IMG/VR virus record: IMGVR_UViG_3300032295_004003
Span: 1 to 36,111 of that record
Reading direction: 5' to 3' (one strand)
Length of the DNA stretch: 36,111 bases
Source: a virus
Taxonomy: Duplodnaviria > Caudoviricetes
In this document: positions 10,002 through 34,197 of the stretch, in pieces
Numbering within the stretch: the stretch's first letter is position 1
Layout of the letters: each line of letters begins with the position of its first letter
Program-made: the position numbers and the translations under genes
Notes under the pieces: generated by a model
The model's input: only the letters and a program-made list of their open reading frames with translations
Told to the model about the DNA's origin: nothing
The model's database searches: none

Positions 10002-10398
10002 TGCTCAAGCATCTGAGATTCAATTTAAATTTAAAAGTCCTTCTTTTTCGGGAGAAGGATACTCTGCGCACGTTTTAACTATAGAAAACTTAGAACACAC
10101 TCGTCGTCAAAAACTAGCTGAAGATAAAAAAGCGGCTGCTATAAAAGAAGCTCAAGACGCTAAAAATACTAATTTAGCTAAGTTTTTAAATAATCTAGAA
10201 AGTAGGATATACGCTACACTATCTCAGAAAATAGCAGAAGAATTATTTAAAGATAATGGTCAAACTTCGGGTAGTTTTGATATTGCAGGTAATCATATAC
10301 AATGGTCTAACAATGGATCCACTATTACTTTAAGAATAACAGACCCTGCAGGGTCTATTACTGAAATAGAGGTTCCTTATGGGAGTTTAGCATGGTAA
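9961..10398 (+). CDS. csgF: curli assembly protein CsgF-like
   Basis: Signal peptide then 'SEIQFKFKSPSFSG'; 'FLNNLESRIYATLS'; C-terminal 'ITDPAGSITEIEVP'. Adjacent to CsgG. Confidence 0.85.
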   Translation: MKKLLLVIPIVLSSAQASEIQFKFKSPSFSGEGYSAHVLTIENLEHTRRQKLAEDKKAAAIKEAQDAKNTNLAKFLNNLESRIYATLSQKIAEELFKDNGQTSGSFDIAGNHIQWSNNGSTITLRITDPAGSITEIEVPYGSLAW

Positions 10399-11192
10399 CA
10401 GTATTACTTGTAGCTACTTTAAGTTTATTTTTAGCTTCTTGTACTGCAGATTCCGTTAAAGAAAGATCTCAGTCTGGAATGGATGTTCCTGAGATTATTA
10501 CTAAAAAAAGACTTAACGACTTAGTTAGTATACCCCCTGTTGACGGACCTAAAATTCCTATTGCTGTGTATCGTTTTCCTGATATGACTGGTCAGCGTAA
10601 ACCAGCTACTAATTTTGCTAGTTTAAGTTCTGCTGTTACACAAGGAGCTGAGGTATTTTTAATTAAAGCACTTCAAGACGCAGGAAGAGGTTCTTGGTTT
10701 CAAGTTGTAGAAAGAAGCTCTTTAGAAAATTTAGTAAAAGAAAGACAACTAATAAGGTCACAAAGAGAATTATATGAAAGAGATCAGGCTAAGCCTTTAA
10801 CACCTTTAATAGTAGCTGGTGTTATGATAGATGGCGGAGTAATAGGATATGATTCTAATATAGGAACTGGCGGTATAGGAGCAAGATTTTTAGGCATTGG
10901 TGCAAATCAAGAATATAGAAAAGACGAAGTTACTGTAGTTTTACGTTTAATATCTGTTAATACAGGAGAGGTTTTATTATCTACAGGAGCTTCAAAAACA
11001 GTTTTAAGTACTGGTGCAAGTGCTAACGTTTTTAAGTTTATAGATGTTGGAACTAAATCTGTAGAATTTGAAGCAGGAACTTCTATAAACGAACCAACTA
11101 CTTATGCTGTTAGAATAGCAATCGAAGCTGCTGTAGCAGATATGATTAGAGAAGGTAGTAAGAAAAAACTTTGGATTATGGGGAAGAAATAA
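10392..11192 (+). CDS. csgG: CsgG/HfaB-family outer-membrane lipoprotein secretion channel
   Basis: Lipobox LFLASC; 'AVYRFPDMTGQRKP', 'SSAVTQGA', 'WFQVVER..LENLVKERQLIR', 'GGVIGYDSN', 'NEP...AVRIAIE.AV'. Confidence 0.93.
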   Translation: MVTVLLVATLSLFLASCTADSVKERSQSGMDVPEIITKKRLNDLVSIPPVDGPKIPIAVYRFPDMTGQRKPATNFASLSSAVTQGAEVFLIKALQDAGRGSWFQVVERSSLENLVKERQLIRSQRELYERDQAKPLTPLIVAGVMIDGGVIGYDSNIGTGGIGARFLGIGANQEYRKDEVTVVLRLISVNTGEVLLSTGASKTVLSTGASANVFKFIDVGTKSVEFEAGTSINEPTTYAVRIAIEAAVADMIREGSKKKLWIMGKK

Positions 11193-11195
11193 ACC

Positions 11196-11873
11196 ATGAA
11201 GAAAGGACATATTTTAAGTTTAATAGCTTTTATTTATGCAACAAGTGCTTATGCACAACAAAACTCTATATATGTTGATCAGGTAGGTTCTGGTTCAACA
11301 ATTAGTCTGACACAAACAGGTGTTGGTAATATAATAGGAAATTCCACTACTAAAGCAGTTTTTAATGGTAACAATAATTCTGTAACAGTAGATCAAATTG
11401 GAAACTCAAATATATTAGCAATAAACGTACAAGGAACTGGTACTACTATAACTTCTAGCACTACCGGAGACGGTAATGATGTAAGTATCTCTTGTGGTGT
11501 TGGAGGTGACTGTACTAACTCACTAATTACTAATACTATAGTTGGGGATGGTAATACGGTTGTTCAAAATACTGAAGGTCTAACTATATCAACAGTATCT
11601 ATAAACTCAGATAATAATACAGTAACCATAAATAATACTTCTACTGCTGTATCAGGTACTAAATCAAATGTAGATATTAGCGGAGGTGGAGGTAACCAAG
11701 TAGCTATCACACAAGCTGGAGCAGCTGGGTTAAACGGTCATGACGCTTCAATAGTAATAATAGGTGCTACAAATGATGTTGATATAAGACAAGGTGGTAA
11801 TAATGACTCTAAGGTTATCTCAACAATTACAGGTTCTGGTAATACTCTTATTGTTAAATCCAACCATCAGTAA
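11196..11873 (+). CDS. secreted curlin-repeat (CsgA/CsgB-like) protein
   Basis: Signal peptide; repeated x-Q-x-G-x-x-N units (IYVDQVGSGS, ISLTQTGVGN, VTVDQIGNSN, VDIRQGGNND); N/G/T/S-rich. Confidence 0.8.
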   Translation: MKKGHILSLIAFIYATSAYAQQNSIYVDQVGSGSTISLTQTGVGNIIGNSTTKAVFNGNNNSVTVDQIGNSNILAINVQGTGTTITSSTTGDGNDVSISCGVGGDCTNSLITNTIVGDGNTVVQNTEGLTISTVSINSDNNTVTINNTSTAVSGTKSNVDISGGGGNQVAITQAGAAGLNGHDASIVIIGATNDVDIRQGGNNDSKVISTITGSGNTLIVKSNHQ

Positions 11874-12903
11874 TGCTGATGTTGGAAAATTTACAGAGTT
11901 AACAGGGTTAACAGAGATAAAAAGACAATCTGATGTCATCGCCGGATCTTTACAGTCTTCTGTAGAGATGAGAGATGTTATTACTACAGCAAACTCTAAA
12001 GCGGGTATTACTTTTAAAGACGATACTAAGGTACAAATAACAGAGCATTCTAAGTTAGTTATAGATAATTTTGTCTATGATGATAATAAAAAGACAGGCA
12101 AACTTGGAATGAAAATGGCGTTAGGAACTATTAAATATGCGTCTGGTCAAATTGCTAAAAGCGATCCACAACAAGTTATGGTTGAGACCCCAACAGCGAC
12201 TATTGGAGTACGTGGAACAGACTTTTCAGGGACAGTCGACGAAACTGGCCGTAGTACTATTATCTTATTACCTTCTTGTCCAGCTGGTTGGGGTAATATC
12301 GAACGTGATTGTGTTGTTGGTGCCATAACTGTTACTACAGACATGGGTACTATACTACTAACAAAACCATTTGAGTCTGTAACAGTTAATACTACAATAG
12401 ATAGACCTAAATCTGCTATATTAAATTTATCTATTGATCAGATTAATAATTTAATTATTGTGTCGCCTCCTAATACTGTAAGAGCAGAGGCTACTTATAC
12501 TAGAAAAAGTAATTTTTTAGATGAAGACTTTTTATCTAAAGATTTTTTAAAATATGATGAATTAGATAAAAATAAACTTGATGAATATAAAAAGTTAGAT
12601 CAAAAATTTTTAGATACCGACTTTCTATATAATTTTTTAGACGTAATGTCTAGTCAATTGCTAACTAATGAGTTGGCTGAGTTTAACGCTATGCTTCCAA
12701 AGTATGACGCTAGAAGTGGTTTAAAATACTACGTCGAAAACGAAATGCTAACTTTGTATAGAGAAACTGTTAATGCTTATGCAAGTGTCACGGTTCCTAT
12801 GTATGATAGTATGACTCTTCGTTTAACTCAAGAAGGACTAGAAATAAAACAAGTTGTAAATTATACAGGCACTACTACTATTACTATAAAGCAAGGTAAT
12901 TAA
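11803..12903 (+). CDS. periplasmic FecR-domain protein with long linker and curlin-like C-terminus
   Basis: Signal peptide; FecR motifs 'ITFKDDTKVQITEHSKLVID' and 'VETPTATIGVRGTDF'; ends 'TTTITIKQGN'. Confidence 0.85.
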   Translation: MTLRLSQQLQVLVILLLLNPTISNADVGKFTELTGLTEIKRQSDVIAGSLQSSVEMRDVITTANSKAGITFKDDTKVQITEHSKLVIDNFVYDDNKKTGKLGMKMALGTIKYASGQIAKSDPQQVMVETPTATIGVRGTDFSGTVDETGRSTIILLPSCPAGWGNIERDCVVGAITVTTDMGTILLTKPFESVTVNTTIDRPKSAILNLSIDQINNLIIVSPPNTVRAEATYTRKSNFLDEDFLSKDFLKYDELDKNKLDEYKKLDQKFLDTDFLYNFLDVMSSQLLTNELAEFNAMLPKYDARSGLKYYVENEMLTLYRETVNAYASVTVPMYDSMTLRLTQEGLEIKQVVNYTGTTTITIKQGN

Positions 12904-12904
12904 A

Positions 12905-13180
12905 ATGAAAATATTAATATCTTTAATATCATTTACATTATTTTATAATTATGCCCTAGCACAACAAACTAATAATGCTACGGTAAATATAATAGGAAAT
13001 ACTCAAAATGTTATTATCACTCAGTCTGGGAATAATCATAATACTAACCTTAACTTTGTTGGCGATGGAATTTCAGCAATCATCAACCAGTCAGGAACTA
13101 TTCCTAAGACTTTTAATCTTAATGTCACTTGTTACAGCAATTGTCCAAGCAATCCTTATGTGGTCAACCAATACGAATGA
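12905..13180 (+). CDS. small secreted curlin-like protein
   Basis: Signal peptide; 'VIITQSGNNHN', 'AIINQSG', Cys pair CYSNC. ATGA overlap with the cyclase. Confidence 0.7.
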   Translation: MKILISLISFTLFYNYALAQQTNNATVNIIGNTQNVIITQSGNNHNTNLNFVGDGISAIINQSGTIPKTFNLNVTCYSNCPSNPYVVNQYE

Positions 13181-15240
13181 ACAAACTAGAGCAAATACTA
13201 ACAAGTACTTTAATAACTGTTATCTCAGCGATAATCCTCGTGGGGTTATATGCGTCGAACGTTAGTTATTTAGAAGTATTAAAATTAAAAACATTTGATT
13301 ATTTTATAACTTCTTTAGAGACAAAAAAATCAGATGAGATTGTACTTGTTGAATTCGGTGAAAAAACAGTTAAAGAATTTGGTCAATGGCCTTTTGACCG
13401 AAAAGATATTGCAGTTACTATTGACAAAATTCGTGAAGCCGGCGCAGCAATCATTGTCGTCCCTATACTTTTTAGCGAAAAAGACCGTGCCGGTAATGAT
13501 AAAGCTTTGGAAACTTCTATTGAGTCCGGTGGTGTTATTATATCACAAACACCAACAACTCAGTCAAGAGAAGCAACTGCTGTTCGCAGAGGGTTTGCTG
13601 CTATTGGTAATGCTCCTGATCCATGGTTATATACTTGGAGAGGGGCTATCTCTCCTTTACCATCTCTGGCAGGAAAGTCCGAAGGTGTCGGGCTTCTCGC
13701 TGTGGCACCTGAGCTTGACGGTGTTGTTCGTAGGTTGCCTATGCTGGCTCGCATTGGGAATACATTGTATCCTTCACTTGTTTTGGAAACCTTACGAGTT
13801 GTGGCTGGAGACCCATCTTACCAAATCAAAACCTCAGAAGCAGGTGTTGAATTTGTCCGTATCCCAGCCTTCCCGCCGATTAACACCGACGAAAAAGCCA
13901 GAGTCTGGGTATCCTGGAACTCGGAATTTGAAAAAGTCGAAGCCACAGAAATTACCGAAGAGAAAATAAACGGAAAAATAGTAGTTTTAGGTCTTACTAT
14001 TGAAGGTGTAGGAGGTATAATAGCTACCCCAATAGGAGAAAAATGGTCTCACGAAATTCAAGCTAAGACTCTACAAACTTTAATAGATGGAAATTCTATT
14101 ACTAGATTATCTTATGCTAATGTAGTAGAGTATATTGTTTTGTCTATTTTATTAGCAATCTTAATAATTCTAGTTCCTAGAACGTCTGTTAAACTAACTG
14201 TTCCTTTATATTTTACATTTATATTCGTTATTTATTATGTGTGCGATTATTTATTTAAAGAGTATTATCAATTATGGAATTTTAGTTATTTAATACTGGC
14301 TAGTTCTATACTTTTTGCTCACTTATTATTTAATAATTTTGCTCGTGAATTTAGATTAAAACAACAAATTAAAAAGCAATTTGGAACATATCTATCACCT
14401 GCTCTTGTTGAAAAACTTCAGAAGAACCCTGAGCTATTACGACTAGGGGGAGAAACTCGTGAACTTTCAATTATGTTTACTGATGTGCGCGGCTTCACTT
14501 CTATTAGTGAGCATTATGGATCTGACGTTCAAGGTCTTACTAAGATAATGAATCGTTATATGACAGCAATGACTCAAAAGATACTTGATAATAATGGAAC
14601 TCTAGATAAGTATATAGGCGACGCACAAATGGCTTTTTGGAATGCACCTCTTGATGAGCCAAATCACGCAAAACAAGCTGTTAAAACTGCGCTTGAAATG
14701 CTTGGAGATTTAGATGCTTTTAACAAAGAAATTGCTGTCGAAGGCGTACCGCCATTTGGTATGGGTCTTGGTATTAATACTGGGTCTGTCGTTGTTGGAA
14801 ACATGGGATCTAGTCAAAGGTTTGATTATACTTGTTTGGGAGATTCTGTTAATCTTGCTTCGCGTTTAGAAGGGCAATCTAAACCCTACTGTGTTAAACT
14901 GATTATAGGCGAAAAAACTTATGAACATATAAAAGAATATTATTCTTGTGTAGAACTTGATTGTATCGCTGTTAAAGGCAAAACAAAAGGTATTAATATA
15001 TATACCATAGTAAATGGTACTGGGATAGATAAAGAATATTTAACTGTACATAAAAAATTTATTAAAGCGTATCGTAATCAAGATTGGGATAGCGCACTTA
15101 TTCTTATAAATAGTTTAAAAAACGCTTTTAATAAAGATTTAAATGATTATTACGAAATGATGAGACTAAGAATAGAAGAACTAAAACATTATAATCTACC
15201 TTCAGACTGGGACGGTGTTTATCATGCCACTTCTAAATAA
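13177..15240 (+). CDS. CHASE2-domain class III adenylate cyclase
   Basis: CHASE2 motifs ('FGQWPFDR', 'DGVVRRLP') and 3 TM segments. Catalytic motifs 'FTDVRGFT', 'DKYIGDA', 'DYTCLGDSVNLASRLE' include the ATP-specifying K and D. Likely ATG at 13177. Confidence 0.93.
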   Translation: MNKLEQILTSTLITVISAIILVGLYASNVSYLEVLKLKTFDYFITSLETKKSDEIVLVEFGEKTVKEFGQWPFDRKDIAVTIDKIREAGAAIIVVPILFSEKDRAGNDKALETSIESGGVIISQTPTTQSREATAVRRGFAAIGNAPDPWLYTWRGAISPLPSLAGKSEGVGLLAVAPELDGVVRRLPMLARIGNTLYPSLVLETLRVVAGDPSYQIKTSEAGVEFVRIPAFPPINTDEKARVWVSWNSEFEKVEATEITEEKINGKIVVLGLTIEGVGGIIATPIGEKWSHEIQAKTLQTLIDGNSITRLSYANVVEYIVLSILLAILIILVPRTSVKLTVPLYFTFIFVIYYVCDYLFKEYYQLWNFSYLILASSILFAHLLFNNFAREFRLKQQIKKQFGTYLSPALVEKLQKNPELLRLGGETRELSIMFTDVRGFTSISEHYGSDVQGLTKIMNRYMTAMTQKILDNNGTLDKYIGDAQMAFWNAPLDEPNHAKQAVKTALEMLGDLDAFNKEIAVEGVPPFGMGLGINTGSVVVGNMGSSQRFDYTCLGDSVNLASRLEGQSKPYCVKLIIGEKTYEHIKEYYSCVELDCIAVKGKTKGINIYTIVNGTGIDKEYLTVHKKFIKAYRNQDWDSALILINSLKNAFNKDLNDYYEMMRLRIEELKHYNLPSDWDGVYHATSK

Positions 15241-32155: not shown

Positions 32156-33017
32156 AAAGATTGGCGGCATAACGTCGATAGGATAAGTTAGGTAACTAAC
32201 CCAAAGCAAGGATTCCTACAACCTTGCGCTCGAAAGAGTCCACTTATGCAAGCACAAGTCTACGGCTAAACCGTGTGTCATTTGAAAAAATGGCAATAAA
32301 CACGACTAGTAGGTACAGGTCCGAAAGGATAGATCTCAGAGCCAAATCGGTGAGAGACAAATGAGCAGCAACTCATACCTCTACATGCAAACTACTATAA
32401 TGCGATGACTAATGTGTAACAACTAAATCCGACTATTCGCGTAGAAGGGTGTGTTGTATTGTAAAGGTTTTTGGTTAGACTTGTTCTAAACAAGACCCTG
32501 AAACAAAGTCTAGTATCCCGCAAGGAGAGGGACAGTTGGTGTGTTGTATTTTGTATCTAACAAGATATAAAGCAACAGAGGTAGCACATCAAAGTAGGTT
32601 GCAAGCGTATATAGCTCAACAGGTAGAGCAATTGTCTTTTGGAACAATAAGTTAGAGGTTCAAGACCTCTTATACAGTCACTCAAAAAACGCAAAGACTG
32701 CCTCGGTACTATATGAAAAGTGCTTAATACCTTACCGAAAGGAATAAGGTGCATCGAAAGCCGCAAGCTCTAGATGTTCGTTAAAAGAAATAACATAATC
32801 CTTTAGCGGGGATGAGCTGCTCGTAAGGCAGGTGTTACGTAAATTGACGAGTAGTATAGTATGACAGTGTACAGCATCACTTTAAACTGCAGCACTGATT
32901 ACTACTAGGATACTCTTGAAATAGAGGCTTAGTGGATAACGGATTAACTCTCAGAGAGCAAATGAGAAGGTACGGTCCAAAGGTAATCGTTGTTAGCTTT
33001 AATCTCAGGCTAATGCT
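32156..33017 (+). ncRNA. GOLLD-like giant ornate RNA (~860 nt)
   Basis: Size, phage context, many GNRA-capped stems (GAAA, GCAA, GTAA) and an embedded tRNA. Segments match my recollection of the GOLLD consensus (5' GGCGGC..GTCGATA, TATGCAAG, GCAAAG after the linker, AGTGGATAA, 3' TAATCTCAG). Not verified by a covariance-model search. Confidence 0.75.
32605..32679 (+). tRNA. degenerate tRNA (8-nt anticodon loop CTTTTGGA, identity ambiguous) embedded in the GOLLD-like RNA
   Basis: D-arm GCTC/GAGC, anticodon stem ATTGT/ACAAT, T-arm AGAGG-TTCAAGA-CCTCT. Acceptor stem imperfect; no CCA. Confidence 0.65.
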
Positions 33018-33038
33018 TTAATAAAGGTCACTTTATTA

Positions 33039-33068
33039 TTGCCAAGTATACTAAAATATAGTATACTT
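33039..33068 (+). promoter_or_regulatory. sigma70-type promoter overlapped by a palindrome
   Basis: TTGCCA-N17-TATACT; inverted repeat AAGTATACTA-AAATA-TAGTATACTT. Confidence 0.6.
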
Positions 33069-33203
33069 AGTTATAATAAAGATTCAGGGGGAATACAAAC
33101 ATTATTGTAACCTGTGCACGTAGTCAGTCGTGCCCCGCATATCTAATACACTATGAACCTGTTACTGGTTCTCACGATAAAGTGATAGTAATTCTTAGTG
33201 TAT

Positions 33204-33736
33204 GGCAAGACTCTAGTTGGTAAACCGAAAGGGATATAGCAGAAAGTAGAGTCACTATGTATAGCGGGATTGGGGGCTATACATAACTTTAATAAAAAGC
33301 AGATACCTCCTTTCCAAATTTTCTGTTATTATTAATATACCCGCTGTCGGTGCTGAGGGGAAGCACAGATGGACAACACTAGGACACCGTTCGAATCGGG
33401 AACAGCGGGTTAACAAAGTTTTTAAATAGGCAAGGTTCGTAAAAGGAGGCGCAATCATTCCTTGGTTGCGGGTTTGGTGACGAATCATATCGCAGGCGGG
33501 TGAGGGGCTGTGCGAGATTTAGAATAAACTACTTACTTGTGTGCACAAAGTCGAAATAGTAGTTTTGGGGTATAATAAGTACGTAAAAACCCCATCAATT
33601 TTATAGAACCTTAGACTGGCTTGAGTTTACTCGCTTCTAAGGTTGGGTAGGACTCTTATTAATTTAGTTTGGTTTTACCAGTTGCCAAACTAATTAAAGT
33701 AGAGTCACCGTTTATAGCGGGAAGGGGGCTATAAGC
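33204..33736 (+). repeat. three dispersed copies of an ~85-nt structured motif (33204-33285, 33429-33515, 33646-33736)
   Basis: GGYAR-G-stem...stem-C-AY, followed by a hairpin ending GC-GGG-N2-3-GGG(G)-GCT in all three copies. Confidence 0.7.
33339..33410 (+). ncRNA. tRNA-like element lacking a proper anticodon arm
   Basis: 9-bp stem ACCCGCTGT/ACAGCGGGT, D-like arm GTGCT-GAGGGGA-AGCAC, T-loop CCG-TTCGAAT-CGG; no CCA. Confidence 0.6.
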
Positions 33737-33750
33737 ATATCATCATGGTT

Positions 33751-33787
33751 AAAGCCAAGGCAAAATTACCTTTTGTCTTGGCTTTTT
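33751..33787 (+). terminator. intrinsic terminator
   Basis: AAAGCCAAGGCAAAA / TTTTGTCTTGGCTTT plus T-tract. Confidence 0.7.
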
Positions 33788-33831
33788 CTGCTTCAAGAGA
33801 AGAAGCATTAACTTAATGGAGGTAAAATGAA

Positions 33832-34197
33832 ATGGCATATTGGGGTTATCATCTCGTACTAGACTGCGCCGAACTCGATCATGAGGCTATTACTAGTTAC
33901 GATACAATTTATAAGTTTACTAAGCAGCTTGTTAACGATATTGATATGGTTGCTTATGGAGAACCACAGATTGTTAACTTTGGATCTGGTAATAAGGCAG
34001 GTTATACTTTAGTTCAGCTAATTGAAACTTCTAATATATGCGCTCATTTTGTTCCAGACGATGGGATGGGAGGAAACGCTATGTATCTCGATGTTTTCTC
34101 TTGTAAGGAATATGATGATCAGATTGTTATTAATCTGGTGAAACAGTATTTTGGAGCTAAGTATGTAAGGCCCAACTACCTAACTAGACAGGCTTAA
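33832..34197 (+). CDS. speD: S-adenosylmethionine decarboxylase proenzyme (viral type)
   Basis: 'GYHLVLDC', 'LIETSNICAH' (pyruvoyl-forming Ser), 'YLDVFSCK'; GGAGG SD. Confidence 0.85.
   Translation: MAYWGYHLVLDCAELDHEAITSYDTIYKFTKQLVNDIDMVAYGEPQIVNFGSGNKAGYTLVQLIETSNICAHFVPDDGMGGNAMYLDVFSCKEYDDQIVINLVKQYFGAKYVRPNYLTRQA

Follow-up and report, generated by a model that had tools for sequence, protein, structure and literature searches.

Do the three similar elements near the 3′ end of the window encode one structured RNA, and if so, what might this RNA do? The window, the whole stretch of 36,111 nucleotides of viral DNA analysed here, has a gene content (curli CsgG, PhoH, sugar-nucleotide enzymes, and tail terminator) that fits a large T4-like phage. 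Its CsgG shares 47–49% identity with the CsgG proteins of Pelagibacter phage HTVC008M and Methylophilales phage Melnitz. Positions 10392–15240 hold a row of phage-borne csgG, curlin-repeat, FecR, and CHASE2-adenylate cyclase genes. Twenty RNA runs, labelled mostly freshwater, contain part of the stretch.

The original prediction placed copies of an unrecognised RNA motif at 33204–33285 (copy A), 33429–33515 (copy B), and 33646–33736 (copy C). All three are present there with the stems it described, on the plus strand. In copy A, the leader GGCAA (33204–33208) is followed by helix P1 (33209–33215 paired with 33247–33253), which encloses an insert (33216–33246). The junction AC (33254–33255) leads to helix P2 (33256–33265 paired with 33276–33285), which is capped by a G-rich loop (33266–33275). 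In copy B, P1 is formed by 33434–33440 and 33480–33486, P2 contains a bulged G, the loop spans 33498–33506, and the insert presents AGGAGG at 33444–33449. Copy C starts with the leader GGTAG, followed by P1 (33651–33656 with 33701–33706) and P2 (33710–33718 with 33728–33736; loop 33719–33727). Each copy is supported by its sequence, its fold, and orthologues in other records: copy A in L038, L448, L727, and L813, with compensatory changes; copy B in L038, L465, and L448/L408, where GGAGG is found at the same place of the insert in 3 of 3; and copy C in L448 and L465, where the loop ends with GGA. The complete A–B–C set thus recurs in L448/L408, L465 carries B and C in its available stretch, and L038 carries A and B only, with no counterpart of copy C.

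Two hairpins are predicted on the plus strand for every copy, with fold z-scores of −2.6 (A), −2.1 (B), and −4.2 (C). The G–U pairs of copies B and C favour the plus strand, and copy B folds poorly on the minus strand (z-score −1.0). The loop pattern GC-GGG-N2-5-GGG-GC occurs three times in the window, always on the plus strand, versus a mean of 0.00 in 100 shuffles. With the covariance model, no further copy emerges in the window: the next best match scores 10.8 bits, versus 60–73 bits for copies A–C, all three of which were in the seed of that model.

Homologues were sought with pattern scans of viral contigs, one metagenome pattern scan, and two protein-anchored scans, and were filtered by stem pairing and covariance models (loci L368–370, L479–489, L597–616, and L807–817 lie outside the model scoring). 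Pattern matches are mostly due to chance; in one viral-contig scan, for example, 4 of 37 were accepted. The curated set comprises 36 copies from large-phage records and about 15 insert types, several copies being near-identical relatives. Elsewhere, most records carry a single copy. Two seed sequences of the first model, L317 and L257, were dropped, their context resembling GC-rich coding DNA. Candidates in L341, L275, L473, L764, L723, and L744 were dismissed as chance, as was a match of 17 bits in Melnitz. Possible weaker relatives of 22–25 bits, with a compensatory change between them, are found at L728:1191–1257 (minus strand) and L732:1213–1279. Both sit directly after a TATAAATA site, which we take to be a T4 late promoter. 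In three pairs (L899/L900, L904/L905, and L934/L935, three records), a copy with a GAU loop is duplicated 878 nt apart; one of these duplicates comes after a frame that, judging by its look, may encode a homing endonuclease.

The motif also occurs in a cultured phage. One motif-bearing record is a 330-kb phage with a capsid closest to that of Sinorhizobium phage Phosso (76%), and Phosso itself carries a copy at 433819–433912 (35.6 bits), within its tRNA region at a point where the annotation leaves a gap. This copy was found by the model alone, Phosso having been reached via a GOLLD-like sequence and not via the G pattern. That sequence, L872:2335–3382 (Phosso ~33000–34050), is an unannotated 1-kb gap with 69% identity to part of the GOLLD RNA of the window; by sequence similarity, this cultured phage probably has a GOLLD that its annotation lacks. 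Blastn with the Phosso copy returns only the self-match, and blastn of the cluster or of single homologues against cultured phages returns short chance matches or none. HTVC008M and MD18 have no copy. Nine of nine further cultured jumbo phages lack the motif as well; therefore, it is not essential to jumbo phages. No convincing cellular copy is found in a GTDB pattern scan of 120 loci, 100 of them scored by the model with a best score of 30 bits; the candidates are mostly GC-rich, and the four alignments inspected have broken or short stems.

The homologues define a constant core of two helices with conserved unpaired bases and a swappable insert. The leader is 5′ GG-Y-AA, with variants GGAAA, GGAA, and GGUAG, and is followed by G. 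P1 opens with a G–C pair (24 of 24 parsed copies), followed mostly by R–U, and encloses an insert of 13–44 nt (24 parsed copies) that is conserved inside a lineage and unrelated across lineages. The junction between the helices is 2 nt, A-N. P2 has 9–10 bp, its 5′ strand measuring 9 or 10 nt in all 24 parsed copies, and its top is R–Y, G–C, C–G. The fourth base of the P2 3′ strand is a purine in 23 of 24; this base bulges out when the 5′ strand has 9 nt and is paired when that strand has 10 nt. The core of the P2 loop across the family is G...GGR. The invariance of the core is partly built in by the search patterns; even the relaxed scan described below required GGTAAG, TCAY, RGCG, and GGRGC.

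That the stems change while pairing is kept, as originally proposed, holds across the family. In an alignment of 18 less redundant copies, 12 of 15 pairs, in both helices, show double changes, 91.9% of 258 cells pair versus 64.4% after shuffling, and the covariation score is 0.73 versus at most 0.18 for slid controls (which pair at 26–44%), figures that overstate the significance, since the shuffles ignore kinship and the copies were partly picked for pairing. Judged from the sequences, the main support for the helices is the breadth of unrelated stem sequences, not the shuffle statistics. Directly 3′ of the copy, L071 (635–790) and L190 share ~150 nt of non-coding sequence, so that in these two loci the motif may form the 5′ domain of a longer RNA.

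The family is a real, apparently uncatalogued, tRNA-sized, and modular RNA of large phages. No Rfam 15 family matches the copies, at the gathering score or at E-values up to 10, and none matches the motif in homologous loci; together with the covariation, this bears out the claim of an unrecognised RNA family. ARAGORN reports no tRNA on the window copies. We find no description of the motif in the literature. Six loop motifs have no match in the readable tables of PMC10690425, and the motif may be unnamed among the 10,006 viral alignments of that study. The closest parallels are two orphan RNAs that phages and prophages encode, GOLLD (RF02032) and ROOL (PMC12286853). Like them, the two-helix RNA is phage-encoded, lies near tRNA islands, and has an orphan function; like GOLLD, which is directly upstream in the window and has a linker as its variable part, it combines a conserved and a variable part. 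However, GOLLD and ROOL measure 600–800 nt or more, whereas the two-helix RNA has ~70–100 nt and two helices only and occurs without GOLLD; the models of GOLLD (RF02032) and ROOL (RF03087) do not match the motif. RNA C and RNA D of T4 (rnaC and rnaD; NC_000866) are likewise small and stable and lie in the tRNA cluster of a T4-like phage. In contrast to the motif, they differ in sequence and predicted folds, and our model matches neither of them, its best score of 6.7 bits falling at another place in the T4 stretch searched. YrlA, a small Y RNA-like molecule encoded near tRNAs, is modular: one part binds protein and another varies. The motif shares the modularity and the tRNA neighbourhood but has no tRNA-like domain, and the YrlA model (RF02553) does not match it, the weak matches falling on tRNAs. 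Theta (HDV-like) ribozymes are phage RNA motifs beside tRNA genes; unlike them, the motif has no double pseudoknot and no fixed position at tRNA 3′ ends. The family belongs with the orphan phage RNAs of tRNA islands, matching none of those tested.

Of the 36 curated copies, fifteen have a tRNA on the same strand no more than 20 nt away (12 detected by ARAGORN and 3, in L011, L172, and L831, by Rfam), and the remainder lie in tRNA regions or ncRNA clusters. The copies are 5′ of, 3′ of, or between tRNAs, at no fixed distance: close gaps are 5–17 nt on either side and 5–11 nt where the tRNA is close upstream, and the distances elsewhere are 52 to >800 nt. In L297 and L831, reading by eye places the copy after a promoter-like sequence and before a tRNA. 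At L448:400–1600 and L819:700–2800, islands that are kilobases long and poor in ORFs carry repeated sigma-70-like promoters (TTGCT...TAAGAT), and every such promoter precedes a structured sequence without an Rfam match. A second conserved motif, likewise without an Rfam match, shares ncRNA clusters with the two-helix RNA; downstream of its GATCAT/ATGATC stem come CAACGGAG and a short hairpin that covaries, and this second motif is found at L448:980–1080, ~310–240 nt 5′ of the copy in L190, and ~20–140 nt 3′ of an A-type copy in L819.

Moderate evidence indicates that copy A is transcribed. RNA-library contigs cover it in 3 of 8 metatranscriptome runs (3 of a first 4), these three being freshwater libraries from three studies; the contigs span 33114–33409, 33165–33316, and 33193–33406, with one mismatch each, and give neither strand nor ends, and such libraries can contain DNA. 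Copy A has no contig in the other 5 of the 8 runs, and copies B and C have none in any of the 8, which is no evidence of absence.

The neighbourhood of the cluster holds further elements, among which the GOLLD RNA, the promoter and terminator candidates, the ACCTCCTTTCCA element, and the hairpin 3′ of copy B are on the plus strand. The 3′ half of a GOLLD RNA (32536–33011; Rfam RF02032, 166 bits) lies outside the motif and ends 190 nt before copy A; within its linker is a tRNA (32605–32678) that has an 8-nt anticodon loop here and is tRNA-Lys(ttt) in the relative L038. The full GOLLD likely extends over ~32165–33011, and a single RNA-library contig covers 32173–33008. A sigma-70-like promoter candidate for the cluster, with 10 of 12 consensus matches, is at 33039–33067 in a stretch kept in L038; the promoter scan as a whole is at chance level (6 sites versus 7.5 in shuffles). 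A conserved ACCTCCTTTCCA element is found 3′ of copy A (33305–33316), kept in L038 and L448, and its 7-mer core has its sole plus-strand occurrence in the window there. Between copies A and B (33339–33411), a stem CCCGCTG/CAGCGGG encloses a T-loop-like GTTCGAA hairpin; two RNA contigs stop within this stem, at 33406–33409, and L038 and L448 carry a different hairpin there. A conserved hairpin 3′ of copy B (33526–33562), with the palindrome GTGCAC (33541–33546) in its loop, is kept in L038, L465, and L448. Finally, an intrinsic terminator candidate (33751 to ~33790), a 15-pair stem with a T tail, closes the cluster before the AdoMet decarboxylase gene, which starts at 33832; a comparable hairpin with a T run occupies the same place in L038, L448, and L465.

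This arrangement would fit a tandem riboswitch that regulates the AdoMet decarboxylase gene (speD) via the terminator at 33751, and the order copies–terminator–gene is kept in the window, L038, L448, and probably L465. However, when the 80 loci that carry the closest AdoMet decarboxylase genes are examined, 79 have no copy within 3 kb, and 50 of 50 whole records of such genes (mostly fragments) have none either; copies elsewhere sit between tRNAs, and none overlaps the terminator stem. The riboswitch reading is largely refuted and, to us, highly improbable; the association with AdoMet decarboxylase reflects synteny within a single clade. A G-quadruplex was proposed from the two G3 tracts per loop; it could be a three-tier structure between copies or a two-tier one completed within a copy by the leader GG. 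The conservation of the GGG-N2-3-GGG loop stands for the three window copies and fails across the family. The loop starts with GGG in all three window copies and in 26 of the 36 curated copies and ends with GGG in 34 of 36, but most of the 26 came from patterns requiring GGG: the first scans demanded it on both sides of the loop, which makes the invariance of the tracts there circular. In 10 of 36 curated copies the first tract is not GGG. Copies found without this demand differ, those of type C in L448 and L465 ending with GGA and that of Phosso starting with GUG. A relaxed G...GGR scan gives 45 loci, with 23 model matches of 30–59 bits; 22 of the 23 start with GAU, GAA, GCG, or GGA and have tRNA neighbours, P1 paired at 5–6 of 6 positions, and P2 at 7 of 7, and 20 of these non-GGG matches are close relatives, so that they represent two or three lineages. 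Since the first tract varies (GAU, GAA, GCG, GGA, or GUG) while the stems are intact, a quadruplex of two G3 tracts is excluded as the mechanism of the family; GAU or GAA copies have too few G pairs even for two tiers. By these comparisons, a quadruplex is mostly eliminated as a mechanism for the family at large and very unlikely as the module that explains the RNA, and the three window copies could form one themselves.

Three further explanations take the conserved core as their starting point. The folded core could act as a nuclease roadblock, shielding its own 5′ end, the insert, or adjacent tRNA precursors from exonucleases with no specific partner; the conserved leader at the 5′ end could be sequestered, and copies flank tRNAs at 5–17 nt. 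Viral xrRNAs, which block nucleases, use a Watson–Crick pseudoknot or a three-way junction, neither of which is seen in the motif, and the copies lie 5′ of, 3′ of, between, and far from tRNAs, which makes a roadblock unlikely. Comparably unlikely are two other roles: an aptamer that would sequester a small ligand, for instance a nucleotide alarm signal, or one building block of an oligomer made of RNA only, of the kind that GOLLD and ROOL form. A purine-rich conserved core on two helices would resemble aptamer layouts, GOLLD is adjacent in the window, and short RNAs can build higher-order assemblies (10.64898/2026.07.01.735769); against this, known riboswitch models do not match, the core has no conserved self-complementary loop, and most loci have no GOLLD match nearby. 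A self-cleaving ribozyme that processes tRNA precursors, akin to theta ribozymes, would account for the conserved unpaired core, the variable peripheral insert, and the tRNA adjacency. We regard it as quite unlikely, given that there is no fixed register to tRNA ends (5–17 nt on either side and hundreds of nucleotides elsewhere), no match to any Rfam ribozyme model, and no visible nested pseudoknot.

Sequences beside the copies offer hints of translation. The ACCTCCTTTCCA element presumably resembles the anti-Shine-Dalgarno end of 16S rRNA, of which we take ACCTCCT to be the core. ACCTCCT lies inside or within 40 nt of 5 of 32 copies, versus 0.08 expected, in a test chosen post hoc after the element had been seen and with three independent placements only. 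Three relatives have it 3′ of copy A; it also occurs just 5′ of L483 and, in the unrelated L922, within the loop of the insert. Complementarity between inserts and the element looked striking, but it is not above shuffles and was rejected as real pairing; in the tests of the A insert with the C insert and of the ACCTCC element with the B insert, 98–134 of 1000 shuffles match (134, 123, and 98). GOLLD is reported to be bound to ribosomes in pull-downs (PMC12286853). The constant core may dock on the host ribosome or an initiation factor, with exchangeable inserts or tails that redirect translation or decoy host defences, a rather unlikely reading in which the inserts and tails would be anti-Shine-Dalgarno-like, Shine-Dalgarno-like, and others. 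If true, the RNA would be an RNA-only counterpart of plug-in effectors.

The best explanation, which we hold tentatively, is that the three copies are paralogues of a small structured RNA of large phages, with a constant two-helix core and a lineage-specific insert, that acts in trans as a stable scaffold binding one conserved partner. The notion of a constant scaffold with variable cargo gains from the P1 inserts (13–44 nt), which are conserved within and unrelated between lineages; that of a decoy array is weakened, as most other records have one copy, and a decoy role in trans is possible. In the scaffold model, processing of tRNA or ncRNA precursors would yield the copies as separate RNAs of ~70–100 nt. 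The 5′ GG-Y-AA leader would fold back along P2 and dock on its conserved top, where R–Y, G–C, C–G, the fixed purine, and the G...GGR loop likely form non-canonical purine pairs. The fixed P2 length and the conserved bases at the leader and the P2 top suggest such a tertiary contact; both sides are nearly invariant, and no covariation is seen between them. The docked surface would likely be recognised by a host RNA-binding protein or the translation machinery, and the RNA would titrate or recruit that partner, the insert adding a lineage-specific pairing sequence. No protein family is common to more than 5 of 12 motif-bearing records (mostly fragments), and a Ro/TROVE gene is absent from 5 of 5 (four incomplete).

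Large phages hold islands of orphan RNAs, among which the two-helix RNA is small and strongly covarying and has many unrelated inserts. For a small RNA of phages, it is unusual to combine a constant core with inserts that can be exchanged. The family is directly testable, since a cultured phage carries it and the host of that phage, Sinorhizobium meliloti, is harmless and genetically tractable, and if the core accepts foreign inserts, it may serve as a stable RNA scaffold.
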